Below, piece after piece: positions 1 through 10,888 of a stretch of DNA of 10,888 nt. Under the pieces are notes generated by a model. That model saw only the letters and a program-made list of their open reading frames with translations. It was not told the DNA's origin and did no database searches. Origin of the DNA: a virus (taxonomy: Duplodnaviria; Heunggongvirae; Uroviricota; Caudoviricetes); IMG/VR virus record IMGVR_UViG_2529293142_000034, positions 1-10,888 of that record; one strand, given 5' to 3'. Numbering within the stretch: the stretch's first letter is position 1; each line of letters begins with the position of its first letter. Position numbers and translations under genes: made by a program.

Positions 1-1263
1 ATGAAGCTCACAGCCAGACAGGTCGAGACCGCAAAGCCAAAAGAAAAAACCTACAAAATGGCCGACGGCGGCGGTTTGTATCTCGAGATTTCGGCTAAGG
101 GCTCTAAATACTGGCGCATGAAATACAGACGCCCCTCAGACAAAAAAGAGGATCGCCTCGCTTTTGGTGTTTGGCCTACTGTGACGCTAGCTCAGGCAAG
201 AGTAAAGCGCGATGAGGCTAAAAAGCTGCTAGTGCAGGGCATTGACCCAAAAGCCGAACAGAAAGAAGTTCAGGCCGAGAATTCGGGGGCATATACATTC
301 GAAACCATTGCTCGTGAATGGCACGCCAGTAACAAGCGCTGGAGTGAAGACCATCGATCGCGCGTTCTTCGCTATCTTGAGCTTTATATATTCCCTCACA
401 TTGGTTCGTCCGACATTCGTCAGCTCAAGACTAGCCACCTATTAGCCCCGATTAAAAAAGTTGATGCAAGTGGTAAGCATGACGTCGCGCAGCGTCTTCA
501 GCAGCGTGTCACGGCTATCATGCGTTATGCAGTACAGAACGATTACATCGACTCAAATCCAGCCAGTGATATGGCTGGTGCTCTATCTACAACCAAGGTG
601 CGACATTACCCCGCTTTACCCTCTAGCCGATTCCCTGAGTTTCTTGCACGTCTTGCTGCATATCGTGGCCGTGTAATGACACGGATCGCGGTTGAGCTTT
701 CCTTACTAACTTTTGTGCGTTCCAGTGAGTTGCGTTTCGCGCGTTGGGATGAATTCGACTTCGATAAATCTCTATGGCGCATACCTGCAAAACGAAAAGA
801 AATTAAGGGTGTGCGTTATTCGTATCGTGGTATGAAGATGAAAGAGGAGCATATCGTTCCGCTGAGTCGTCAGGCGATGAATTTGTTAGACCAGTTAAAG
901 CAGATTAGTGGTGATAAAGAGCTGCTTTTCCCGGGGGATCATGACGCAACTAAGGTTATGAGTGAAAACACAGTGAATAGCGCATTGCGTGCGATGGGAT
1001 ATGACACAAAAACCGAAGTCTGCGGGCATGGGTTTAGGACGATGGCACGTGGTGCGCTGGGTGAGTCAGGGTTATGGAGTGATGATGCTATAGAACGCCA
1101 ACTGAGCCATTCAGAACGTAATAATGTTCGGGCTGCCTACATTCACACTTCAGAGCATTTAGATGAGCGTAGGCTGATGGTGCAGTGGTGGGCTGATTAT
1201 TTAGATATAAATAGAATGCAATATGTGACACCGTATGACTTCGCAAAGGAAGAAAATCTGTAG
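1..1263 (+). CDS. int: Tyrosine recombinase, P4-type integrase (420 aa)
   Basis: Intact 420-aa ORF starting at ATG position 1. N-terminal region (LYLEISAKGSKYWRMKYR...) is typical of P4-family integrases; C-terminal catalytic region has HGFRTMARG (His-x-x-Arg) and a downstream Tyr (VRAAYIHTSEH). Confidence 0.93.
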   Translation: MKLTARQVETAKPKEKTYKMADGGGLYLEISAKGSKYWRMKYRRPSDKKEDRLAFGVWPTVTLAQARVKRDEAKKLLVQGIDPKAEQKEVQAENSGAYTFETIAREWHASNKRWSEDHRSRVLRYLELYIFPHIGSSDIRQLKTSHLLAPIKKVDASGKHDVAQRLQQRVTAIMRYAVQNDYIDSNPASDMAGALSTTKVRHYPALPSSRFPEFLARLAAYRGRVMTRIAVELSLLTFVRSSELRFARWDEFDFDKSLWRIPAKRKEIKGVRYSYRGMKMKEEHIVPLSRQAMNLLDQLKQISGDKELLFPGDHDATKVMSENTVNSALRAMGYDTKTEVCGHGFRTMARGALGESGLWSDDAIERQLSHSERNNVRAAYIHTSEHLDERRLMVQWWADYLDINRMQYVTPYDFAKEENL

Positions 1264-1302
1264 AAATTATATGCTAACAATATATAAAACTCTTATAGTA
1301 AT

Positions 1303-1332
1303 AAACCATCCATTATTTTTAATGGATGGTTT
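1303..1332. terminator. Perfect 12-bp inverted repeat (AAACCATCCATT / AATGGATGGTTT) with a 6-nt loop, between the convergent int and cargo genes; putative bidirectional terminator
   Basis: Palindrome read directly at 1303-1314 and 1321-1332, between the int stop (1263) and the cargo gene stop (1362-1364). The stem is AT-rich and there is no clean U-tract, so terminator function is uncertain. Confidence 0.4.
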
Positions 1333-1361
1333 AAGATGAATTACTAGTTTTATGATTGAAT

Positions 1362-3657
1362 TTAAATTACTTCGACATTTTGATCATCATTAGCACTTTG
1401 CTGAACGTCGACATTAATGTCATCATCATTCGGCAGAGCCTTATAATATTCTCCCATCATCATTTTATAATGTGCAGCATTATCGCTGTATTCAAATATT
1501 TTCTGGAATATATTGAGATTTTTACTAACCGAGTTTTGGTCTAGAGCAATGTAAAGATCGTCATTTGAATGATGTGAACCGTCATTAATCCAAGATATCA
1601 ATGAATTAAATGCTATTTTTTCATCACCATCAAAATGTTTTTCGAGTTTCCATACATTAAATCCACCTAAAATTTTAAAGTAATTTTCAAGAATTCTTCT
1701 CATTGTGTTTTGTACTGTTGTGCAATTAATATCAGGGCGCCTTATCTCACTCCATAGTAAATCATATGAAGTTTTAATTGGATTGCATGCATGGCTTTCA
1801 ATGAACGATAATTTATCCTTTTTCCTAATGACCCAAAATGTTTCATCAGGACGAGCAGTATCTAAATTTCTATTCATATCGAAAGTTAACTCTTTATGAA
1901 AATAAATATTGTGAGTTAGGAAAAAGACCTGTTTTATACGGCCATTATTGTCTCTAATGTCTTTTATAAGTTTTTTCATTAATGAGCTAACTATAAACAG
2001 AATATCACTATCTAAACTTGATATAGGATCATCAAAGACAACTACTCGATCGTTCATTACACCAGATGTTGAATTACTTCCTTTGATGAGATTATAGAAA
2101 TATAGGAATGTGATAAAAGTTTTCTCACCCTCACTGAGTGTGCTTAGGGCATTATCACCATTTTCACGTACGATTCTATAGCTAAACGAATCGGATGTCG
2201 GTGCAAGGCTAAAATTTTTGAAGCCAAATGATAAAAGTATCTTATTTATAGCAGTGATTGTTGGCGTGACACTGGTTCTTTTAGATTCCTCGCTGGATAT
2301 ATTTTCAATGATATCATCTAATCTGACTTTGTCTTTTTCTAAACCCTTAATTAACCCTTCCTTAGCTCTATTTAACTGTTCCTTATCAGTATTATATTTA
2401 TTTATTTTATCAGCCAGTTCAACTTTAACTATATAATGCCATATTTCTTTTGTTAGTTTTTCTCTTTCCATGCTCCTGTTTTTGTATAGTTCATTATTTT
2501 CAAAAACTTGATTGTTAGCTGCAAGAATGATGTCTAATAATTCTTTGCCAGGCTCTAGAAGTCCTGTCATAGCGACAGGTGTACTTAATTCAGCCAATTT
2601 TCTTTTTGCTTCATCTATATTCCTTGATAATATTGATAGAATTAATTTGGATTTTGTGTTAAACAAATCCAAATCAAGGAAGGCATAGTTCCCTTCATTT
2701 ATTTTCGCAACATATTCATCAAATAAACGATACTCATGAGTATAATTTTTTAGTAATACATTAATGCTTTCTGTTTTTTCTAAATATTTTGTGTCAAAGT
2801 AACTTTCTAAATCCGATTTCAAACTACTGGGCGTATTTTGTTGGCAAAATGGACATTTGGTTTCAAGGTTATCATAGTACTTTATCCCTTCTTTAACCCA
2901 GTCACTGTTATCTAGTTGCCTTATGATTTCGGCAACGCTTGCATCTTCTTTTCCAAGAATTTTCTCTTTCCATATTTCATCGTCAACTATTTTTTTATGT
3001 TGCTAAAATTTGGTAAGGGAATTATATTGTGAACTGTTAGCGAGTCTGAGTAAACACTACCAGCCTTCGATATTAAGTATGGTAACTGGTGTAAATCTAC
3101 TTCTTTTGAATATAGCTCCTCTAATACCTTTGATTTGAATTTTTCCTGGCTGCTTCTTAAACCTTCAAATGCTTTATAGAAGTAATCATCATGTTTTTCT
3201 TTTGATTCCAGCAATCATTTTTGAAATCCAATTCAATTTTTTCAAGTTTTTGATAGATACCTAAATTTGCATTATCATTGTTATTTAAATTTCTTTTCTT
3301 GGAATCTATTGAGCTTTGCTCTTTATCCCTTTGTTGTATCAATTTGTCTATGTTATCTGTGAGCTCTTTTGTTTCTTCACCTAAAGTAAAAATACCTTTA
3401 ATACTATCTCCAGAAAAATTATTTACAACAAAATCCCTGTTGTAGACATAAGGAGTTAATTGATTGTTGTTTTTCCATTTAATCTGGCAAGTTGGAAAGC
3501 CTAAAGCATTATGAATTATTTTGCTAATTGTAGTTTTTCCAGCACCATTTGAGCCATATATGTAATTGATTTTCATTAGAGGCATCATATATTGAACGTC
3601 ATTTCCATATGAACCGGCTTGAGAAACGCTTATAGACTCTATCATTATCTTTTTCAT
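1362..3657 (-). CDS. Cargo gene: RloC/PrrC-like ABC-type ATPase with central CPFC motif and C-terminal putative nuclease domain (about 765 aa when joined); interrupted in this sequence by two homopolymer frameshifts
   Basis: Three adjacent minus-strand ORFs (3157-3657, 2987-3214, 1362-2822) join into one frame if one base is added at the T5 run 3194-3198 and at the T7 run 2990-2996. Walker A YGSNGAGKTT is at 3535-3558; reading the 1362-2822 frame upstream of its TTG start gives ...KYYDNLETKCPFCQQNTPSS (CPFC at 2844-2855). Signature-like LSEGEK, Walker B/D-loop VVVFDDPISSLD (about 2025-2045) and H-loop FFLTHN follow. Family assignment (AAA_13 / RloC-PrrC-like) is from motif recall, not a search. 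Confidence 0.7.
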
Positions 3658-3736
3658 CCTTTAGCTTTGTGTGAGGGGCGTGTCAGTCACGGATTACTAT
3701 TGCAGAATATCCATTTGTTTCAAGATATGTTTTTAT

Positions 3737-3780
3737 ACAGTGGTAAATAAACACAGTGGTAAATAAACACAGTGGTAATC
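3737..3780. repeat. Tandem direct repeat, 16-bp unit ACAGTGGTAAATAAAC x about 2.7, lying 80-125 bp upstream of the cargo gene start
   Basis: Exact copies at 3737-3752 and 3753-3768, partial third copy at 3769-3780 (ACAGTGGTAATC); a related CAAGTGGTTTAGTG follows near 3791. Confidence 0.8.
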
Positions 3781-3880
3781 ACAAAATATTCAAGTGGTTT
3801 AGTGTCATAGAAAGTGAGCATCTACGCAAGAATGTACTAACTCTGAGTTTACAAAATTAAATAATTAATATGCGCGCGCA

Positions 3881-3899
3881 GTGCTTTCCCCGCCTCGCC
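3881..3899 (-). other. cos site: P2/P4-type 19-nt cohesive-end sequence GGCGAGGCGGGGAAAGCAC
   Basis: Reverse complement of 3881-3899 is exactly GGCGAGGCGGGGAAAGCAC, followed on that strand by CTGCGCGCG..., matching my recollection of the P2/P4 genome left end. It sits between the cargo locus and psu, as expected for an integrated P4. Confidence 0.8.
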
Positions 3900-3999
3900 C
3901 GCCCGCTTTGCGGGGCGGTTTTAATGCAGTTGCACTGACACGCTCAGACCGCGCCGGGAATGGCGCGGTTTGCAGAAAATGAGGCAGGGAAACGCATGC

Positions 4000-4033
4000 A
4001 AAGCCATGCACCTTATCGATGCATGGCTTTTTT
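4000..4033. terminator. Intrinsic terminator-like hairpin (10-bp stem AAAGCCATGC / GCATGGCTTT, 11-nt loop) with a 3-prime T-tract on the plus strand and an A-tract on the other side; probably bidirectional, just downstream of psu
   Basis: Stem pairs 4000-4009 with 4021-4030, followed by TTT at 4031-4033 (T-run 4028-4033). Lies about 30 bp beyond the corrected psu stop (4064-4066). Confidence 0.5.
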
Positions 4034-4063
4034 CAGTAAAAACGGGCGGATTTTCGGGGAATT

Positions 4064-4635
4064 TTACACTGACTGACGTGATGCCAGTTGCGCACTTTTA
4101 CGCGAAAAAATCATGTTCTGCGCAGGGGTGAATTTTTCACGGCTGTCATCCACCGAAGCCGCGTCAGGCCTGAATCCGATGGTCGTTAAAATGTCGCTAT
4201 CCTGTGCGGAATAATTAATTTTTCCCCCTTCGCAAGCCAGGACAGAAGGGCTTCACGCAGGGCATCTGTGGCACGCTGTATGGCACAGTTTCGGGCAATG
4301 GCCGTCAGCTCACTGTATCCCATCAGCTCCGGTGCCAGTGCCGCCGCCAGTGCTGTGCCGTGCTGCTGCATAAAATCATTCAGCCGGTCGCGGATGCTGA
4401 TGTGCTGAACGGCTTCATGCGAACGAATATAACGACCGGCGGCCTGATTCACCTGCCATTTTCTGACTTCGATAATATTGCGTAATTCGTCCAGGCGACT
4501 GACGTTTCTGCCTTCCCCGGACAGAAGCCGCAGATATTCCTGTTCGGCCGCAGCCAGCTCATTTTTGCGTTGCAGCCATGCTGCTTTGTTATTCTGACAG
4601 GTGTCAAAGGCCTGCTGTAAGGCTGTGCTTTCCAT
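4064..4635 (-). CDS. psu: Psu polarity-suppression / capsid-decoration protein (190 aa after a one-base correction); C-terminus out of frame here because of a homopolymer indel
   Basis: ORF 4186-4635 (149 aa) ends ...LSWLAKGEKLIIPHRIATF*. The adjacent frame reads KINYSAQDSDILTTIGFRPDAASVDDSREKFTPAQNMIFSRKSAQLASRQSV* to a stop at 4064-4066. The join needs one extra T in the T5 run 4219-4223 and gives 139+51 = 190 aa, the length of P4 Psu as I recall it. Confidence 0.85.
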
Positions 4636-4707
4636 CGTTATCTCTTTCTCATCATGCTGAAGAATAAAATACGGTGTGCGGCGACGGCCGGTGTTAACCG
4701 GCAGCCC

Positions 4708-5208
4708 TCATTCCAGACGCAGCGAATATGATTGTGTTTTTAAGCGTACTGGCGGCAGTTCCTGTTTTTCATGCAGGCTTTCTGCCAGTTCGTCCGGCGT
4801 GACCGGGCGGACAATGAAACGGTTGATGGTCTGAAGCGTTTTAAACACCAGACCACAGCCCGGATCCGTGCACACATAAAAACGCTCGGTGACTTCCTGA
4901 GACAGACGCCTCGATGTTCTTGACAGTGCAAGGCCTTTACATCTCCGACAACAATATCCGGTAACAAGCATTCTTTTCGGGCGTTTCATACTGCCGGAGG
5001 CTGACGTCAGTGAATCGCGGTATCTCTGTTTGCCTGAAATGTATTCCATTCCTGAATCTTTACTGTCAGAGAAAAAGCTTTCACTCGCTTCAAATGTCGC
5101 AGAGCAATAAATATTCCGGCACTGTGCAATCATTATCTTGGTGCCATCGTCCATGAAATGTGCGCGGCGGGTGTGAGCAACATGTCCACACGACGGGCAG
5201 TAAATCAT
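4708..5208 (-). CDS. delta: Delta late-gene transcription activator with two tandem Ogr-type zinc-finger domains (166 aa)
   Basis: Intact 166-aa ORF with two C-x2-C-x22-C-x4-C modules (CPSCGHVAHTRRAHFMDDGTKIMIAQCRNIYC and CCRRCKGLALSRTSRRLSQEVTERFYVCTDPGC). Its ATG (5208-5206) overlaps the sid stop as ATGA. Confidence 0.9.
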   Translation of the reverse strand: MIYCPSCGHVAHTRRAHFMDDGTKIMIAQCRNIYCSATFEASESFFSDSKDSGMEYISGKQRYRDSLTSASGSMKRPKRMLVTGYCCRRCKGLALSRTSRRLSQEVTERFYVCTDPGCGLVFKTLQTINRFIVRPVTPDELAESLHEKQELPPVRLKTQSYSLRLE

Positions 5209-5938
5209 GACAGCAGTCCTCTGGCCTTAAGCTCTGCTCCCTGCTGGTCTATTTTGTCCTGCCACACCTTGCGCTGTGCCGGTGTGCCTGCCACCTCATA
5301 ATCCATGTGCGGGAGTGTTGCCGCTGACAGTCCGGTCAGCCGGAGAACCGGCTCACCGGTGAGGCTGATTTGCATCTGTTTTATTTTCTGTTCCAGCGAT
5401 GATTTCACCTGCTGCATGACAGCCTTTTCCGGTGCGACGTAGCCCTGATGGCCGGTGGCGTTGGCGAGCGGATTTTCCTGTACCAGAATGCTCAGATGCA
5501 TTGCCCGGACAAGCGCCTCACAGGTTTCATTCAGGGCGTGTTCCAGCTCATGCTCTGCATACAGACTCAGCAGGTGATGATGTGCCTTCCGGTAGGCGGT
5601 GGCCGTGCTGTCACACGCCCCTTTCAGGCGTTCACGTTCAAAATTCAGCACCACGGCCAGATTGTCATATTCCTGTACCAGCTCCCGGCGTGCCACGCGC
5701 TCAATGTGGCGCTGTTTCAGCTCGTCGCTCAGGACACCACCGGCTGCACGAAAGGCTGTGCGCCAGTCATCAGCGTCATTTCCGTCGGCCTGCGCCAGCG
5801 CATTTTTTCCTGCTCTGCCCGTTCAATGGCCTTGACGGTCTCATCCATCAGTCGGGCGTTCTCAAGGTGGGCGGCTCTGGCCTTTTCCAGTTGTGCCAGT
5901 GCGGGTTGCAGATATTCAGGGATGGTGTTGTCAGACAT
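5205..5938 (-). CDS. sid: Sid capsid size-determination (external scaffold) protein (244 aa after a one-base correction); split in this sequence by a homopolymer indel
   Basis: ORFs 5729-5956 and 5205-5696 join if one T is added to the T6 run 5803-5808: ...AIERAEQEK + NALAQADGNDADDWRTAFRAAGGVLSDELKQRHIER + VARRELV.... Starting from ATG 5938 (GAGGAG Shine-Dalgarno 7 nt upstream) gives 45+36+163 = 244 aa, the P4 Sid length as I recall it. Confidence 0.85.
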
Positions 5939-5972
5939 TTTCCGGCTCCTCGTCACTTCAGGTTAAGAAAAT

Positions 5973-6028
5973 TGTGACGTACACCGGACAACAACACGAC
6001 GCATTGCAGATGTGCCAGTCCTGACACA
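5973..6028 (-). promoter_or_regulatory. Candidate late promoter for sid-delta-psu with two TGT-N12-ACA activator sites of the Ogr/Delta type, centres 38 bp apart
   Basis: TGT-N12-ACA read at 5973-5990 and 6011-6028. If the distal site is centred near -55, the start of transcription falls about 5964 and the proximal site near -18, leaving a roughly 25-nt leader before sid ATG 5938. The -55/-18 arrangement is recalled for P4 late promoters. Confidence 0.55.
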
Positions 6029-6106
6029 GGAGACTCATCCTCAGACCGGCAAGCCAGGAAAAGGTCGCAGGAAAAACCGGCTTACTGTTTGTTTTTTTAT
6101 ATTTTA

Positions 6107-6220
6107 CTGTTCACCTCTGTTCACCATAAGAAAAAAGATAAGTAATACAGTAAGTTAAAGGGTGAACAATCGCAGTAATGACTGTTCACCGTCTGTTCAC
6201 CACTGTTCACCCGTTCATGG
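6107..6220. repeat. Phased 9-mer repeats CTGTTCACC (five direct copies, one inverted, one degenerate) in the divergent control region between sid and alpA
   Basis: Direct copies at 6107-6115, 6117-6125, 6182-6190, 6193-6201 and 6203-6211 (10-11 bp spacing within each cluster); inverted copy GGTGAACAA at 6161-6169; degenerate CGTTCATGG at 6212-6220. Existence is certain; function is inferred. Confidence 0.8.
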
Positions 6221-6295
6221 ACTTTTTGTGCTGTTTATTACTTTTTATTTTTATTAATTAACTGAAATAAATAAGAAAAACAATTTGTATTTCAC

Positions 6296-6301
6296 TATAA
6301 T
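6296..6301 (+). promoter_or_regulatory. Consensus -10 hexamer TATAAT facing alpA; candidate early promoter element
   Basis: TATAAT at 6296-6301 in an AT-rich stretch; no convincing -35 at 17 bp spacing, so this is weak. Confidence 0.25.
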
Positions 6302-6490
6302 TTTTTCCAGCTCCTTCCAGAGCGTTTTTAAAAGCTATCTGGCGCTGATGTGCAAAAAACACACAGCCATTGTAAGGCTGCCGGAACAAATCCCCCCTGT
6401 TGCGTCTGCCAAAAATATTCACAAAATAAAGCGCTACCCCGAAGCCGGACGGACTTATCCGGTGCTGTATGGACATTACGAGGTAGCCCG

Positions 6491-6760
6491 ATGCTAAGCC
6501 TGTTTTTTCTCCCCGTCTCCTGCCCCTGTGACGCCACTGATGCCGCTGCCGGACATCACGCAGGTAGCGTTTTTTTACGCTGCCGGAAGTGATGCACCTG
6601 TGCGGCCTGTCACGCTCGACCATCTATGAACTCATCCGTAAGGGGGAATTTCCGCCGCAGGTGAGTCTTGGCGGTAAAAAATGTGGCCTGGCTGCACTCT
6701 GAAATCACCGCATGGATGGCCGGGCGCATTGCCGGACGCAAACGGGGGTACGACGCATGA
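6491..6760 (+). CDS. alpA: AlpA-family (Vis/excisionase-like) helix-turn-helix regulator; reading frame broken twice at homopolymers in this sequence
   Basis: Core at 6580-6702 reads [34 protein letters not shown]...; removing one A from the A6 run 6676-6681 continues as ...[29 protein letters not shown] (stop 6758-6760), a close fit to the AlpA-family pattern. No in-frame start precedes the core unless one T is added to the T7 run 6570-6576, which joins it to ATG 6491 (GAGG 7 nt upstream). N-terminal boundary is uncertain. Confidence 0.65.
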
Positions 6761-7158
6761 TGATGCCCGCTCTGCAAAAAGTCCCTTTTTCTGGCTTGCC
6801 TTTTTCCGGCATTTGCGGATATAGTTTTTCTGCTGCCGCAAAATCGGCAGCCGGGCGTGGAAACCCGAGCAATTCACAGGCGGCATATGACGCGCCATGC
6901 GTCTTTTTTTGTGTCGCAATCAACGCCACAGAGCGCCAGATTATGGTGTGGTGTGTGGTCAGTCGTGCAGATGGCATTCCGTGCATCCTGCCCGCGTCCG
7001 CTCATTATGCCGCAGAGTCAATGGTAGCTCAGGCGGGGCAGCCTCCGGGCTGGCCGGTATCCTGTGAAGCCGGTATTTCCACCCCCGTCTGGGCTATCGC
7101 CATCGAGCGTGGAAACTCCGGCGATAGCGTTATTTGCTATTCACAGGAGGCTGCCATC

Positions 7159-7356
7159 ATGGCTACAACCCTCACCCCCTCACACCCTGAATTTGTCTTT
7201 GTGTTTGCGGCTGTCCGTCGCGCAGACCGTCATCCCCGTATCTGCATGCTTCGCACCGTCGCCGGTGATGAACGCAGTGCCCGCCGTTCCCTTGTCCGTG
7301 ACTATGTGCTCTCCCTTGCTGCCCGTCTGCCGGTGGTGGAGGTGTCCCGTGCGTAA
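7159..7356 (+). CDS. Small early protein (65 aa), possibly an Icd-like cell-division inhibitor
   Basis: ATG 7159 preceded by AGGAGG at 7145-7150 (8-nt spacer); sequence [65 protein letters not shown]. The stop overlaps the next gene start. The Icd-like label is from weak recall of prophage annotations. The same frame is open upstream to 6757, so the true start could lie further upstream. Confidence 0.4.
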
Positions 7357-7636
7357 TAAAAAAGCCCCTCAGACCGTCTCAGCGCGTCATGACGCCCGTG
7401 AACACCTCAGCATTGAGGCTTACCATAAGCTCAACCGCGCCAGCGCCGTATCCCAGTTTGTTGGGGGTGATTTGATTCACCGTGAACTCTCCGGCCTGCA
7501 TCAGCTCTACATTCCGCATATTTTCAGCTACCTGAATGAAGATATTGATTTTGTGCTGAATGAGCTGAAAGCCAAAGGCCTGTGCCGCGATTTTCTCGCC
7601 CAGCAGAAAGACCGGGGAGACAGGACGCATGTTTGA
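7349..7636 (+). CDS. Small early protein (95 aa), possibly the epsilon (derepression) homologue
   Basis: GTG 7349 with GGAGG at 7338-7342; no in-frame ATG exists downstream, so the GTG start is required. It overlaps the upstream stop (GTGCGTAA) and the downstream start (ATGTTTGA). The epsilon assignment is by position and size only. Confidence 0.5.
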
Positions 7637-8084
7637 TTTTCCCCAGCCCGGTGAGATTTACCGTTCTGCCGGTTTTCCCGATGTGGCCGTGGTCGGCATT
7701 CTGGAAGACGGTATTCCGTGGGAAATGCCGTACCGCTGCCCGGACATTGTCTGGAACCCGTACCGCCGTAAATTCAGTATCCTTGTGCGTATCCTCGCTG
7801 ACGGGCGCACCACAGACATCCCGCTGGGGCGTTTTCTGCGGGAATTTACCTGTGACCGTCCTGACCTGTTTAAACGCAGCCCCGTAAACCGGCATGCGGT
7901 ACTGAAAGAAATGGCCGGAGACCCGGAATTACAGAAATGGCGGGAGAAATATCTGGATATTTACCCGCAGGCCCCTGTTCCGGTCAGCCGGGCGGCACCG
8001 GTGGCGCGGGAATGGCGGGAAATTCCCCGCACGGAGCCTGACCCGGAAATCACCCCGGATAACAGTTACCGCAATTATCTGTAA
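7629..8084 (+). CDS. Conserved early-operon protein, 151 aa (orf151-like)
   Basis: Intact ORF whose ATG overlaps the stop of the preceding gene; its size and position before alpha match the P4 left-operon layout as I recall it. Function unknown. Confidence 0.65.
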   Translation: MFDFPQPGEIYRSAGFPDVAVVGILEDGIPWEMPYRCPDIVWNPYRRKFSILVRILADGRTTDIPLGRFLREFTCDRPDLFKRSPVNRHAVLKEMAGDPELQKWREKYLDIYPQAPVPVSRAAPVAREWREIPRTEPDPEITPDNSYRNYL

Positions 8085-8219
8085 TTAAAAAACGACCCCC
8101 GAAAAATTAAATGTGCGTATTCGCGCAGGGATACGCACGTCTTCAGGAGACGCAGATATGCCTTATCAGTTAATGCAACCGGCACGGAATGCAGTCATCT
8201 GTCACAGGGAGGAAAACAA

Positions 8220-8540
8220 ATGAAAACACCCTTACCGCCCGTCTTACGCGCTGCCCTTTACCGTCGCGCTGTCGCCTGTGCCTGGCTGACCGTGTGCGAA
8301 CGTCAGCACCGCTACCCGCATCTCACCCTTGAGTCACTGGAGGCGGCCATCGCCGCTGAGCTGGAAGGCTTTTATCTGCGCCAGCACGGTGAGGAAAAAG
8401 GGCGTCAGATAGCCTGTGCCCTGCTGGAAGATTTAATGGAATCCGGCCCCCTGAAGGCCGCGCCGTCGCTGTCCTTTCTCGGGCTGGTTGTGATGGATGA
8501 ACTCTGTGCCCGTCACATAAAAGCGCCGGTACTGCACTGA
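8220..8540 (+). CDS. Conserved early-operon protein, 106 aa (orf106-like)
   Basis: Intact ORF with GGGAGG upstream of ATG 8220; it ends 14 bp before the alpha start. Function unknown. Confidence 0.65.
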
Positions 8541-8554
8541 AGGAGAACAACACC

Positions 8555-10888
8555 ATGAAAATGAACGTAACCGCCACCGTCAGCCATGCACTCGGCCACT
8601 GGCCGCGTATCCTCCCGGCGCTGGGGATTCAGGTGCTGAAGAACCGTCATCAGCCCTGTCCGGTCTGTGGCGGGAGTGACCGCTTCCGTTTTGATGACAG
8701 GGAGGGGCGCGGCACCTGGTACTGCAATCAGTGTGGTGCCGGTGACGGCCTGAAACTGGTTGAAAAGGTGTTTGGTGTTTCCCCGTCCGATGCGGCCGCA
8801 AAGGTGGCTGCCGTGACCGGCAGCCTGCCCCCGGCTGACCCGGCAGTGACGGCTGCCGCCGGTGCTGAAACAGACGCTGCCCGGAAGAACGCCGCCGCAC
8901 TGGCACAAACCCTGATGGCGAAAACCCGTCCCGGAACCGGTAACGCCTACCTGACCCGCAAGGGCTTTCCCGGCCGGGAATGCCGGATGCTGACCGGCAC
9001 ACACAGAGCCGGTGGCGTGAGCTGGCGTGCCGGTGACCTTGTGGTGCCACTGTATGACGACAGCGGCGAACTGGTTAACCTTCAGTTAATCAGTGCTGAC
9101 GGCCGTAAGCGCACCCTGAAAGGCGGACAGGTCAGGGGCACCTGTCACACCCTTGAAGGACAGAATCAGGCCGGAAAACGTCTGTGGATAGCGGAGGGAT
9201 ACGCGACCGCACTTACCGTGCATCACCTGACCGGTGAAACGGTGATGGTGGCGCTTTCTTCCGTGAATCTCCTTTCTCTGGCCAGCCTTGCCCGGCAGAA
9301 GCATCCGGCCTGTCAGATTGTCCTTGCTGCTGACCGTGACCTCAGCGGTGACGGCCAGAAAAAAGCCGCCGCAGCCGCAGATGCGTGTGAAGGTGTTGTT
9401 GCCCTGCCGCCGGTCTTCGGTGACTGGAATGATGCCTTCACGCAGTACGGCGGGGAAGCCACCCGTAAGGCCATTTATGATGCCATCCGGCCACCGGCTG
9501 AAAGCCCGTTCGACACCATGAGCGAAGCGGAGTTTTCCGCCATGAGTACCAGCGAAAAGGCCATGCGTATCTATGAGCATTACGGCGAGGCGCTCGCGGT
9601 CGATGCCAACGGCCAGCTTCTGTCCCGCTATGAAAATGGTGTCTGGAAGGTGCTGCCGCCACAGGACTTTGCCCGGGATGTGGCCGGGCTGTTTCAGCGT
9701 CTGCGCGCGCCGTTCTCCTCCGGGAAGGTGGCCTCCGTGGTGGACACCCTGAAGCTGATTATTCCGCAGCAGGAAGCCCCCTCCCGCCGCCTGATTGGCT
9801 TTCGTAACGGCGTGCTCGACACGCAGAACGGCACGTTCCACCCGCACAGTCCGTCACACTGGATGCGCACCCTGTGTGATGTGGATTTCACCCCGCCAGT
9901 GGAAGGGGAAACGCTGGAAACCCACGCCCCCGCGTTCTGGCGCTGGCTTGACCGTGCCGCCGGTGGCCGTGCGGAAAAACGCGACGTGATTCTGGCCGCA
10001 CTGTTTATGGTGCTGGCAAACCGCTACGACTGGCAGCTCTTTCTGGAGGTGACCGGTCCCGGCGGCAGCGGCAAAAGTATCATGGCCGAAATAGCCACCC
10101 TGCTGGCCGGGGAGGATAACGCCACATCGGCCACCATTGAGACGCTGGAATCCCCGCGTGAACGTGCCGCGTTAACTGGCTTCTCACTGATACGCCTGCC
10201 GGACCAGGAAAAATGGAGCGGCGACGGTGCCGGACTCAAGGCCATCACCGGCGGCGATGCGGTGTCCGTTGACCCGAAATACCGGGATGCGTACTCCACG
10301 CACATCCCGGCGGTGATTCTGGCCGTGAACAATAACCCGATGCGCTTCACCGACCGCAGCGGCGGCGTGTCACGCCGGCGGGTGATTATTCACTTCCCTG
10401 AACAGATAGCCCCGCAGGAGCGCGACCCGCAGCTTAAGGACAAAATCACCCGCGAGCTGGCGGTCATCGTGCGTCACCTGATGCAGAAATTCAGCGACCC
10501 GATGCTCGCCCGGTCACTGCTTCAGTCCCAGCAAAACTCAGACGAGGCGCTGAACATCAAACGGGATGCCGACCCGACGTTTGATTTTATCGGCTATCTG
10601 GAAACCCTGCCGCAGACCAGCGGCATGTATATGGGGAACGCCAGTATCATCCCGCGCAATTACCGTAAATACCTCTATCACGCCTATCTGGCCTACATGG
10701 AGGCAAACGGCTACCGGAACGTACTCAGTCTGAAAATGTTCGGGCTGGGGCTGCCGGTGATGCTGAAGGAATACGGACTGAATTACGAGAAGCGCCATAC
10801 CAAACAGGGGATACAGACCAACCTGACGCTGAAAGAGGAAAGCTACGGCGACTGGCTGCCAAAATGTGACGACCCTGCAACAACCTGA
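8555..10888 (+). CDS. alpha: Alpha protein: P4-type primase/helicase (zinc finger + Toprim primase + D5-like NTPase), 777 aa, complete
   Basis: AGGAG 9 nt upstream of ATG 8555. N-terminal zinc-binding motif CPVCGGSDRFRFDD...CNQCG, Toprim-like acidic region (EGYATAL ... LAADRDLSGDG) and Walker A GPGGSGKS at 10055-10078. The 777-aa length equals that of P4 alpha as I recall it. Confidence 0.93.
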   Translation: MKMNVTATVSHALGHWPRILPALGIQVLKNRHQPCPVCGGSDRFRFDDREGRGTWYCNQCGAGDGLKLVEKVFGVSPSDAAAKVAAVTGSLPPADPAVTAAAGAETDAARKNAAALAQTLMAKTRPGTGNAYLTRKGFPGRECRMLTGTHRAGGVSWRAGDLVVPLYDDSGELVNLQLISADGRKRTLKGGQVRGTCHTLEGQNQAGKRLWIAEGYATALTVHHLTGETVMVALSSVNLLSLASLARQKHPACQIVLAADRDLSGDGQKKAAAAADACEGVVALPPVFGDWNDAFTQYGGEATRKAIYDAIRPPAESPFDTMSEAEFSAMSTSEKAMRIYEHYGEALAVDANGQLLSRYENGVWKVLPPQDFARDVAGLFQRLRAPFSSGKVASVVDTLKLIIPQQEAPSRRLIGFRNGVLDTQNGTFHPHSPSHWMRTLCDVDFTPPVEGETLETHAPAFWRWLDRAAGGRAEKRDVILAALFMVLANRYDWQLFLEVTGPGGSGKSIMAEIATLLAGEDNATSATIETLESPRERAALTGFSLIRLPDQEKWSGDGAGLKAITGGDAVSVDPKYRDAYSTHIPAVILAVNNNPMRFTDRSGGVSRRRVIIHFPEQIAPQERDPQLKDKITRELAVIVRHLMQKFSDPMLARSLLQSQQNSDEALNIKRDADPTFDFIGYLETLPQTSGMYMGNASIIPRNYRKYLYHAYLAYMEANGYRNVLSLKMFGLGLPVMLKEYGLNYEKRHTKQGIQTNLTLKEESYGDWLPKCDDPATT

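Follow-up and report, generated by a model that had tools for sequence, protein, structure and literature searches.

The AT-rich stretch at positions 1196–3871 of the window (the whole 10,888-nt piece of DNA that was analysed, from a P4-like satellite) is in all likelihood the exchangeable cargo module of the defence hotspot that such satellites are known to carry between int, cos and psu, and the gene that it holds encodes an RloC-like protein. The layout is that of the hotspot, with int at 1–1263, the cargo gene at 1362–3657, cos at 3881–3899 and psu at 4064–4635. This int–psu locus adjoining cos was described by Rousset et al. (2022, Cell Host Microbe, PMC9122126) and figures again in de Sousa and Rocha (2022, PMC8628076) and in a 2026 NAR study (PMC13586616). 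There is no essential difference between the known hotspot and the present locus: the position is the same, the flanks are conserved, each satellite holds one variable cassette and the cos-proximal junction is a few bases away. The cassette also codes for an anti-phage system that is known or at least a candidate, as judged by the PADLOC profiles PDC-S06 and PrrC and by Table S1A of PMC9122126, in which WP_001615855, the protein encoded by the intact relatives of our cargo, is the P4 hotspot 'AAA_13' system. Table S5B of the same study gives 'RloC-like' AAA_13 as the fifth most frequent system of the P2 hotspot (420 occurrences); neither 'AAA_13' nor 'RloC' was found in its main text. Both the AT-rich slot and its RloC-like cargo are already known and catalogued, and what is added here is an int-side junction placed 50–65 nt inside int, a quantified GC step (the GC content of the P4 hotspot is not stated in PMC9122126, PMC8628076 or PMC13586616) and a frameshifted copy of the cargo gene.

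The compositional step

The initial annotation had described the cargo locus as much more AT-rich than the P4-like core, and the GC comparison that it proposed bears this out: GC is 0.310 over 1264–3880 and 0.311 over the cargo gene, clearly below int (0.481), the psu–delta–sid region at 4064–5938 (0.538) and alpha at 8555–10888 (0.609). Its picture of GC-rich flanking genes holds for the last two but not for int, whose 48% is close to the chromosomal flank (0.49–0.54). It was right about the dominance of A/T-rich codons, since AAA and AAT lead the commonest codons of the cargo (with GAT, GAA, ATA and TTA) and codons made purely of A and T amount to 33.5%, versus 11% in the core. A maximum-likelihood fit of two change points to positions 1–6000 delimits the low-GC block as 1196–3871 (2-lnL support intervals 1188–1204 on the int side and 3867–3874 on the cos side), with GC of 0.49 in int, 0.308 in the block and 0.54 in the segment of cos, psu, delta and sid. 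A chance origin of the step is ruled out by the gain in log-likelihood, which is 144.4 for the real sequence, whereas 100 base shuffles give 3.4 on average and at most 7.7.

An exchangeable slot and its junctions

The limits of this block, which comprises the int tail, a terminator-like hairpin, the cargo gene and its promoter region, coincide with breakpoints of homology. On the cos side, homology of the conserved core begins again at 3874. The P2/P4 cohesive-end sequence of 19 nt follows 7 nt further on (3881–3899); it is the reverse complement of GGCGAGGCGGGGAAAGCAC and corresponds to P4 nt 1–19, P4 nt 11624 aligning to window position 3900. When a cos–psu probe was used, 2,260 records matched, and most among the matches listed start at window 3874. 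On the int side, alignments with P4 int and with sampled matches of 630 related int genes mostly end at ~1198–1213, and only a few reach ~1238–1247; identity to P4 int is 89.5% over 1–1211 only. Judged from these alignments, the int-side junction lies 50–65 nt inside int rather than at its stop codon (1263), where the cargo had initially been taken to begin, while the limit proposed at cos stands. The end of int homology matches the change point at 1195/1196, as well as a drop in GC from 0.49 in the int core to 0.32 in the int tail (1195–1263), which indicates that the last 17–22 int codons travel with the variable block. The integrase (plus strand, 420 aa, tyrosine type, Pfam Arm-DNA-bind_3, Phage_int_M and Phage_integrase) can accordingly be divided into a conserved core up to ~1195 and a variable C-terminal tail from ~1196.

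That the cargo was acquired separately, as had been proposed on composition, is upheld by evidence that is independent of composition, namely near-identical cores linked to different cargos. Window 3900–10888 is 97.7% identical to phage P4, and the E. coli satellites whose cores are 97.7–98.1% identical to that of the window (from 3874 in four of them, from 3900 in P4) hold in the int–cos slot a SIR2 protein with an ATPase, a HAD hydrolase with a metallophosphoesterase, a KwaB-like protein, a DEAD helicase with a hypothetical protein or, in P4 itself, gop–beta–cII. Comparison of related satellites, which the initial annotation had suggested, therefore finds a slot whose content varies beside a core that stays constant. 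We considered that int and cargo might have diverged together as one block, because two relatives align continuously with 1–3968; this is not supported, since their int cores are ~86–87% identical to ours, the same as int genes linked to other cargos.

How modules are replaced has been modelled in PMC9122126, which describes the hotspot together with a mechanism combining cos ends and homologous recombination. In the reading favoured here, recombination replaces the modules; one junction is fixed a few bases outside cos and the other is in the conserved 3′ part of int, so that each cargo brings its own int tail, probable terminator and candidate promoter. The cassette in this way supplies the C-terminal tail of the integrase. 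The composition step is a cheap and reliable marker of P4 cassettes, whose junctions can be placed to within ~10 nt, and it could help automatic cargo delimitation in satellites.

The non-coding parts of the block contain candidates for such elements. Between the convergent int and cargo genes, a repeat search found an inverted repeat (1302–1333) with perfectly matching 14-bp arms around a loop of 4 nt, whose RNA fold has an energy of –18.7 kcal/mol (z = –6.0 versus shuffles) and which is probably a bidirectional terminator; the hairpin, which is not followed by a T tract, was not flagged by the terminator scan. Upstream of the cargo gene, a consensus scan yielded a candidate sigma-70-like promoter on the minus strand at 3696–3723 (TTGAAA, a 16-nt spacer and TG-AATAGT), in a region where such sites are no more numerous than expected from shuffles, so that support for it is weak. 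Just upstream of this candidate promoter lies a 16-bp tandem repeat, ACAGTGGTAAATAAAC (3737–3784, two perfect copies and a degenerate one, TRF score 84), whose copy number depends on the strain, three relatives having one more copy.

The RloC-like cargo protein

The cargo gene (minus strand, 1362–3657), as read from ORFs and a three-frame translation, encodes a protein of the AAA_13 family that is 761 aa long when intact. In the window it is split into fragment A (3657–3157, 166 aa, with the Walker A motif), fragment B (3214–2987, 75 aa) and fragment C (486 aa, an ORF at 2822–1362 in a frame that is open from ~3004). The RefSeq start of intact copies is the ATG at window 3645, and gene callers likewise use the second ATG of fragment A, which is why a 162-aa form of it is found rather than the 166-aa one. 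Pfam AAA_13 matches fragment A (E = 4e-29), fragment C (E = 1.2e-101) and, over its full length, the intact orthologue (E = 2.8e-159). The PADLOC profile PDC-S06 matches with E = 6e-259, and PrrC matches the C-terminal region (residues 487–727, E = 3.6e-10).

The motifs expected of RloC were all located, and they are invariant in an alignment of 31 homologues, several of which are named 'wobble nucleotide-excising tRNase' by JGI. The Walker A or P-loop motif GSNGAGKTT is at 3529–3555 (G31, N33, G34, G36, K37 and T39 invariant), the ABC signature LSEGE at 2124–2138 (L504, S505, E506, G507, E508) and the Walker B aspartates at 2028–2033 (D539, D540, followed by P541), all on the minus strand, where these ABC ATPase motifs fall in different reading frames of the window. 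VVVFDDPxSSLD and T578-H579-N580, which includes the switch histidine, are invariant too. A CPFC motif of the CxxC zinc-hook type (TGT CCA TTT TGC, 2844–2855, minus strand; C265-P-F-C268-Q-Q invariant) is at the tip of the helical insert, and the candidate anticodon-nuclease triad is formed by R650 (1698–1700), E654 (1686–1688) and H692 (1572–1574), also on the minus strand, with R651 equally invariant; the R-x3-E...H arrangement matches that of GkaRloC and EcoPrrC. In the AF2 model (pLDDT 80), long helices span residues 276–455, and the best structural matches in the PDB are Rad50/SMC heads (E = 8.7e-9, Rad50 on top), with Foldseek TM-scores that are low (0.2–0.25) because the coiled coil is flexible. 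A sequence search of the PDB with the cargo protein gave no match, and a search of NCBIfam gave only a sub-threshold match to a RecF P-loop.

On these motifs, the cargo is an RloC-like protein with a Rad50-like ABC ATPase, a predicted CPFC zinc hook and a candidate R-x3-E...H anticodon-nuclease triad. RloC is a wobble-nucleotide-excising anticodon nuclease (Davidov and Kaufmann, 2008, PMC2610378; Klaiman et al., 2012, PMC3458546), with which the cargo, compared by motifs, shares a length of ~760 aa, the AAA_13 Pfam domain, the ABC ATPase motifs, a coiled-coil insert with an invariant CxxC (for which zinc binding is predicted) and the C-terminal R-x3-E...H. It differs in sitting in a satellite hotspot without restriction–modification (R-M) genes nearby, although its more distant homologues are, like RloC, linked to R-M loci, and in the spacing of the triad, whose histidine comes 38 residues after the glutamate versus 41 in GkaRloC (R692/E696/H737 in PMC2610378, which gives R320/E324/H356 for EcoPrrC). 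PrrC of the E. coli prr locus also resembles the cargo, in its ABC-type NTPase N-domain, in the C-terminal nuclease region that matches the PADLOC PrrC profile and, by analogy, in an abortive-infection logic. PrrC is, however, described as a protein of ~400 aa, without a coiled-coil/zinc-hook insert and always in a type Ic R-M locus; the 761 aa of the cargo, its zinc-hook insert and its neighbours (int and cos/psu, with no hsd genes) rule out that it is a PrrC.

The N-terminal part of the protein is a Rad50-like head of the ABC ATPase type, into which a coiled coil with the predicted CxxC zinc hook at its tip is inserted, and the C-terminal part is an anticodon-nuclease domain of the PrrC/RloC type. 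The analogy with characterised RloC suggests that the intact protein would detect a DNA- or restriction-related perturbation while a phage is infecting and respond by cleaving tRNA anticodon loops, so that translation stops and the infection is aborted. The tRNase activity, the trigger and the anti-phage role that we infer for the cargo are all transferred from that analogy.

Origin of the AT-richness

The cargo is rare, being present in 3/5,426 complete E. coli genomes, and its nearest homologues are found in the same kind of place. Those at 61–84% amino acid identity, from Serratia, E. coli and a metagenome, are in this P4 slot too, and those at 49–55% identity lie in the cos-adjacent P2 hotspot of P2-like prophages. 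These latter cassettes are alike over their full length and in their GC (30–33%), but their carrier is the helper phage, in which they lie between gpA and the portal gene, instead of a satellite, and their ~69% nucleotide identity, over parts only, is too low to indicate recent exchange between P2 and P4. Homologues at 43–44% identity lie within R-M loci, of type I and of a type III-like kind.

Three other explanations of the low GC were weighed. That it merely reflects the amino acid make-up of a coiled coil rich in Lys, Asn, Ile and Glu, with no separate origin, is highly improbable. The protein is indeed biased (FYMINK residues 38% versus 21% in core proteins, GARP residues 13% versus 30%, long helices in the AF2 model), and the second codon position has a GC of only 0.28; however, GC1 is 0.39 and it is the third position that is most AT-biased (GC3 of 0.26 versus 0.47 in int, 0.56 in psu, 0.62 in sid and 0.71 in alpha). 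Synonymous choice is shifted as well, CTG making up 4% of Leu codons versus 59% in the core (TTA/CTA 63%), AGA/AGG 76% of Arg codons versus 13%, and ATA 48% of Ile codons. Non-coding DNA of the block is also AT-rich (0.20 in the spacer, 0.33 in the upstream region), and the homology breakpoints fall at the composition step; GC3 and the spacer together rule out amino acids as the sole cause. Even less credible is a decaying pseudogene whose GC was lowered by AT-biased mutation after inactivation. The gene is frameshifted here, with one extra non-synonymous change (T47A at 3507), and an IS3 element disrupts the copy of strain RM10740, but GC is likewise 0.311 in intact copies, which share 99.3% identity with it, only one or two substitutions separate these copies from the window over 2.6 kb, and the exact intact protein is found on 158 contigs, so that decay is ruled out as the cause.

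A very recent import from a low-GC donor (such as a Firmicute), not yet ameliorated, would account for the classical foreign-DNA signature of a 20-point GC deficit with rare codons and for the scarcity of the cargo among E. coli genomes. It is nevertheless unlikely, since every one of the nearest homologues is enterobacterial and sits in a P4 or P2 hotspot, no closer homologue from a low-GC donor is among the best 120 of 1,804 (E <= 1e-10), and the unrelated cargos of the slot are just as AT-rich (31–36% GC in five other cargos and in gop–beta–cII of P4). Above all, the homologous cargos of the P4 slot and P2 hotspot have diverged to 84, 78, 61 and 49–55% amino acid identity and are still at 30–33% GC, because of which low GC is neither a date stamp nor the mark of a very recent import. 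The 31% GC and the E. coli-rare codons are instead a stable property of this gene lineage in the mobile gene pool of P2 and P4 (rare-codon usage of RloC ORFs was noted in PMC2610378). Homologues from GC-rich hosts have a GC of 48%, which implies that part of the composition tracks the host, and AT-richness is probably linked to a toxic gene being weakly expressed or silenced.

Frameshifts in the cargo gene

The region 1362–3657, initially read as one cargo gene, does not contain an intact ORF in the window. One-nucleotide contractions in two A/T runs cause two –1 frameshifts that split it over three frames (ORFs of 166, 75 and 486 aa), and this copy, inactive as written, cannot make the full protein. 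Site A is a T7 run at 2990–2996 (A7 on the coding strand) that is T8 in intact copies and T7, T8 or T9 among independent assemblies; site B is a T5 run at 3194–3198 that is T6 in all relatives, the contraction being found only in the window and in one identical Logan contig. There is one 1-nt homopolymer contraction each in psu (T5 at 4219–4223) and in sid (T6 near 5803).

An alternative is that these frameshifts in cargo, psu and sid arose in sequencing or assembly, through under-called homopolymers, and that the RloC-like gene of the strain is really intact; we rate the chance of this a little short of even. All five window-specific indels in the closely aligned part of the window (1–6000) are 1-nt contractions of A/T runs of 5–8 nt, with no expansions, and the affected fraction rises with run length (1/55, 1/19, 1/3 and 1/1, the fifth contraction, at 4225, being uncounted). 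Every aligned relative, P4 included, lacks all five; site B, with its 75-aa middle ORF, is on a single contig, and the sole identical sequence comes from re-assembling a single early run, SRR057628. On the other hand, the T7 allele of site A recurs in many independent assemblies and metagenomes, beside T9 and on different SNP backgrounds, and a truncated 149-aa Psu is on 56 contigs, which implies that at least the site A and psu changes exist in nature.

The T7, T8 and T9 alleles are spread across 14 loci and at least two SNP backgrounds. Fragments of 219 aa produced by T7 are on 9+4 contigs, the 221-aa fragment of T9 is on 4, and 15 have the 486-aa C-terminal fragment that the alleles share (24 contigs read, 28 index blocks), while the exact intact protein is on 158 and other intact E. 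coli variants are on ~11. By these rough counts of contigs with diagnostic fragments, ~10% of public copies, on several backgrounds, have T7 or T9 in place of T8. It is conceivable, if rather doubtful, that slippage in the A8 run (codons ATA AAA AAA ATA, at 2990–2996) turns a toxic, satellite-borne abortive-infection nuclease on and off. What is found, as in phase variation, is a homopolymer tract within an ORF whose length polymorphism among isolates switches the frame. The tract is not conserved in homologues, which encode GAA AAG or GAA AAT at this position and have A7–A8 runs of their own elsewhere. Were the switch real, AT-rich composition would represent a built-in reversible silencing for hotspot cargos. 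Repeated frameshifting of the RloC-like cargo at one A8 run, together with one disruption by an IS, contrasts with the reported rarity in P4 of pseudogenes recognisably similar to defence genes (<1% of pseudogenes; PMC13586616), and this recurrent disruption agrees with frequent switching-off of a toxic effector.

The conserved core

Beyond cos, the core consists of the psu–delta–sid module (minus strand, 4064–5938), identified by Pfam Psu and Ogr_Delta and by the annotation of relatives, and of the intact 777-aa alpha primase–helicase (plus strand, 8555–10888; Pfam Zn_Ribbon_Prim, Toprim_3, D5_N, DUF5906 and Pox_D5), the exact protein being found on 526 contigs. A second, smaller AT-rich dip at ~6000–6450 (GC 0.36–0.40) is the P4 replication origin and not cargo.

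A low-GC block between int and cos

The P4-type integrase gene int (1-1263, + strand) opens the window, which is closed by the stop of the alpha primase-helicase gene (8555-10888, + strand). In sliding windows, GC goes from ~0.49 to ~0.30 across ~1200 to 3870, and then lies at 0.52-0.63. The initial annotation, which had described an AT-rich, separately acquired cargo locus in a GC-rich core of conserved satellite genes, is correct in its finding and essentially right in its interpretation. The cargo locus (1264-3880) is clearly lower in GC than its neighbours, with 0.310 vs 0.481 in int, 0.538 in 4064-5938 and 0.609 in alpha. The core is indeed GC-rich over 4064-5938 and alpha, but not in int, whose 48% is near the 0.49-0.54 of the chromosomal flank. 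A maximum-likelihood fit of two change-points to 1-6000 places the low-GC block at 1196-3871 (2-lnL support intervals 1188-1204 and 3867-3874), with a log-likelihood gain of 144 vs at most 7.7 in 100 shuffles. The dominance of A/T codons claimed for the cargo is equally clear: 33.5% of its codons consist of A and T only (vs 11% in the core), ATA, AGA/AGG and TTA/CTA are the predominant choices within their codon families, and the bias is greatest at synonymous sites (GC3 of 0.26 vs 0.47-0.71 in core genes). Non-coding parts are AT-rich too (GC of 0.20 in the spacer and 0.33 upstream of the cargo). Since change-point gain, GC3, codon and non-coding composition all agree, the block is genuine and well outside chance expectation.

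A second, smaller AT-rich dip (~6000-6450, GC 0.36-0.40) is the P4 replication origin, with type-2 iterons (10-11-bp repeats) at 6180-6211 and also at 6107-6125. The core section diverging most from the closest relative is 6000-7500. Rfam matches over the gathering score, c4-a1b1 and isrK at 6819-6909 and C4 antisense RNA at 7017-7104, are the P4 CI-RNA immunity region.

An exchangeable slot and its junctions

Phage P4 is 97.7% identical to the window over 3900-10888 and its int is 89.5% identical over 1-1211, with no match between 1211 and 3900 in this alignment. The reverse complement of the 19-nt P2/P4 cohesive end occupies 3881-3899, and position 3900 pairs with the last base of P4. A probe of cos and psu found 2,260 matching records in complete E. 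coli genomes, the alignments beginning at 3874 in most matches listed. In all four of the loci examined, the core shares 97.7-98.1% identity with the window and the genes between int and cos differ: (i) SIR2 and an ATPase, (ii) a HAD hydrolase and a metallophosphoesterase, (iii) a KwaB-like set and (iv) a DEAD/DEAH helicase and a hypothetical protein, while P4 itself carries gop-beta-cII. These five cassettes all have a GC of 0.31-0.36 vs 0.54 in the adjoining core. The same locus in related satellites thus combines a near-identical core with a different cargo each time, and the block is the P4 defence hotspot of Rousset et al. (2022; PMC9122126).

These authors proposed that exchange occurs via the cos end and a second, homologous recombination event, a model that both junctions fit. 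On the cos side, the boundary of the initial annotation is confirmed, the junction being 7 nt outside cos. On the other side, the boundary is not the int stop but falls inside the conserved 3' part of the gene: 630 related int genes were matched, and sampled alignments mostly stop at 1198-1213 (few reach ~1238-1247), an end of homology that coincides with the compositional change-point. The last 17-22 codons of int, a perfect 14-bp hairpin (1302-1333, -18.7 kcal/mol, z = -6) and the cargo promoter region therefore move with the cassette.

An RloC-like cargo

The cargo had been annotated as a single gene at 1362-3657 (- strand), but in the window this region is three ORFs in three frames, at 3657-3157 (166 aa), 3214-2987 (75 aa) and 2822-1362 (486 aa, in a frame open from ~3004). 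The same locus is found at tRNA-Leu in three complete E. coli genomes, and BEN5202 and WL164 encode an intact, single 761-aa 'AAA family ATPase' (WP_001615855). In RM10740, an IS3-family element within the cargo gene (L003 8615-9965) is an independent inactivation. The satellite of WL164 (L001 11469-13442) is defective but keeps its defence gene: large deletions have truncated delta and removed most of sid to alpha, and the cargo next to this core is intact.

The intact protein matches Pfam AAA_13 over its full length (E=2.8e-159) and the PADLOC candidate PDC-S06 (E=6e-259); its residues 487-727 also fit the PrrC profile (E=3.6e-10). JGI gives homologues at 42-44% identity the name 'wobble nucleotide-excising tRNase'. 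Invariant in an alignment of 31 homologues are Walker A (G31...K37, T39), C265-P-F-C268-Q-Q, the LSEGE signature, Walker B (D539-D540), H579, and R650/R651, E654 and H692. Davidov & Kaufmann (2008; PMC2610378) defined RloC by this set: ABC motifs, a coiled-coil/CxxC zinc hook and an Arg-x3-Glu...His anticodon-nuclease triad. Because of these matches and motifs, the intact gene is filed as RloC-like by sequence-defined criteria; we infer tRNase activity, a trigger and an anti-phage effect for its product. An AlphaFold model (pLDDT 80) has long helices at 276-455, and the PDB entries that match it best are Rad50 and SMC heads (E down to 8.7e-9), the coiled coil keeping TM-scores low; a sequence search against solved structures gave no match. 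The cargo gene is already known to the field, 'AAA_13 WP_001615855' being listed among P4 hotspot systems (PMC9122126, Table S1A) and a system labelled 'RloC-like' being the fifth commonest in the P2 hotspot, with 420 occurrences (Table S5B). The feature is an ordinary case of a well-described system with an already catalogued cargo.

Immediately upstream of the candidate promoter of the cargo, a 16-bp tandem repeat, ACAGTGGTAAATAAAC (3737-3784), has two full copies in the window and three in some relatives (L001 of WL164, L002 and L019), and may be an operator or expression tuner.

What the low GC means

The drop in GC sets apart a module of separate history, which is established because cargos are swapped, so that composition is not the sole support for separate acquisition. 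It is no evidence for recent import from a low-GC donor, since divergent enterobacterial homologues stay at 30-33% GC. The closest homologues all occupy comparable sites: P4-like satellites in Serratia aquatilis, E. coli and a metagenome carry those with 84, 78 and 61% aa identity, between psu/delta and int, and P2-like prophages carry those with 49-55% in their cos-adjacent hotspot, flanked by gpA and the portal gene. All have 30-33% GC vs 48-60% in their surroundings; they have therefore diverged widely in enterobacterial P2/P4 elements without drifting to host composition. R-M-linked homologues in GC-rich hosts have 48% GC vs 56-62% in neighbours. Two inspected members of the JGI-named group, at 43-44% identity, are embedded in R-M loci of type I and of a type III-like kind, hsdM-hsdS-AAA_13-M78 peptidase-DUF4411-Abi_C-hsdR (L028 2199-12241) and SNF2 helicase-DUF2130-AAA_13-N6_N4 methylase-RhuM-ResIII (L029 762-12241), a restriction-linked setting that is classical for RloC. 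Lasting AT-richness and rare codons would be consistent with a toxic effector that is weakly expressed or silenced; rare codons have been remarked in RloC ORFs as well (PMC2610378).

Frameshifts in A/T runs

Over 1-6000, where the window aligns closely, five A/T runs are each exactly one base shorter than in all relatives, P4 included: 2990-2996 (T8 to T7) and 3194-3198 (T6 to T5) in the cargo, 4219-4223 (T6 to T5) in psu, ~4662-4665 (A5 to A4) in an intergenic region and ~5803-5808 (T7 to T6) in sid. No window-specific expansion was found there, and the share of runs contracted increases with run length, a pattern that suggests homopolymer under-calling. One early run, SRR057628, re-assembled in Logan (L021), gives the only sequence identical to the window. 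The four contractions besides 2990-2996, which break the cargo a second time, psu and sid, are peculiar to the window among aligned relatives and may be a sequencing artefact. However, not every contraction can be one, because T7 and T9 alleles of run 2990-2996 recur in other independent loci (six, including L021, and three, respectively) and a 149-aa truncated Psu is recorded on 56 contigs. This run is T8 in intact copies and T7, T8 or T9 across assemblies and metagenomes (L018-L027, L001-L003), T7 and T9 each occurring with two or more SNP backgrounds.

The exact intact protein is found on 158 contigs, 219-aa (T7) fragments on 9+4, a 221-aa (T9) fragment on 4 and the 486-aa C-terminal fragment on 15 in the cluster table (24 carrying contigs read, 28 blocks in the index); about one in ten public cargo copies is therefore out of frame at 2990-2996. 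Such a frequency differs mildly from P4 satellites in a 2026 NAR study (PMC13586616), where recognisable defence pseudogenes are rare. The run (ATA AAA AAA ATA) is not conserved in homologues, whose A7-A8 runs sit elsewhere, and is no conserved switch; that it acts as a contingency switch is improbable. We take it to be a side effect of AT- and Lys-richness, which leaves such cargos frameshift-prone.

The sole substitution between the window cargo and other aligned copies, C instead of T at 3507, changes residue 47 of the 761-aa protein from Thr to Ala and is common only to L021. Four other loci (L018, L019, L020 and L027) have an additional G in int, equivalent to window ~165, for which gene callers give a 366-aa integrase, a sign that int is inactivated in the lineage also carrying T7 or T9 cargo alleles.
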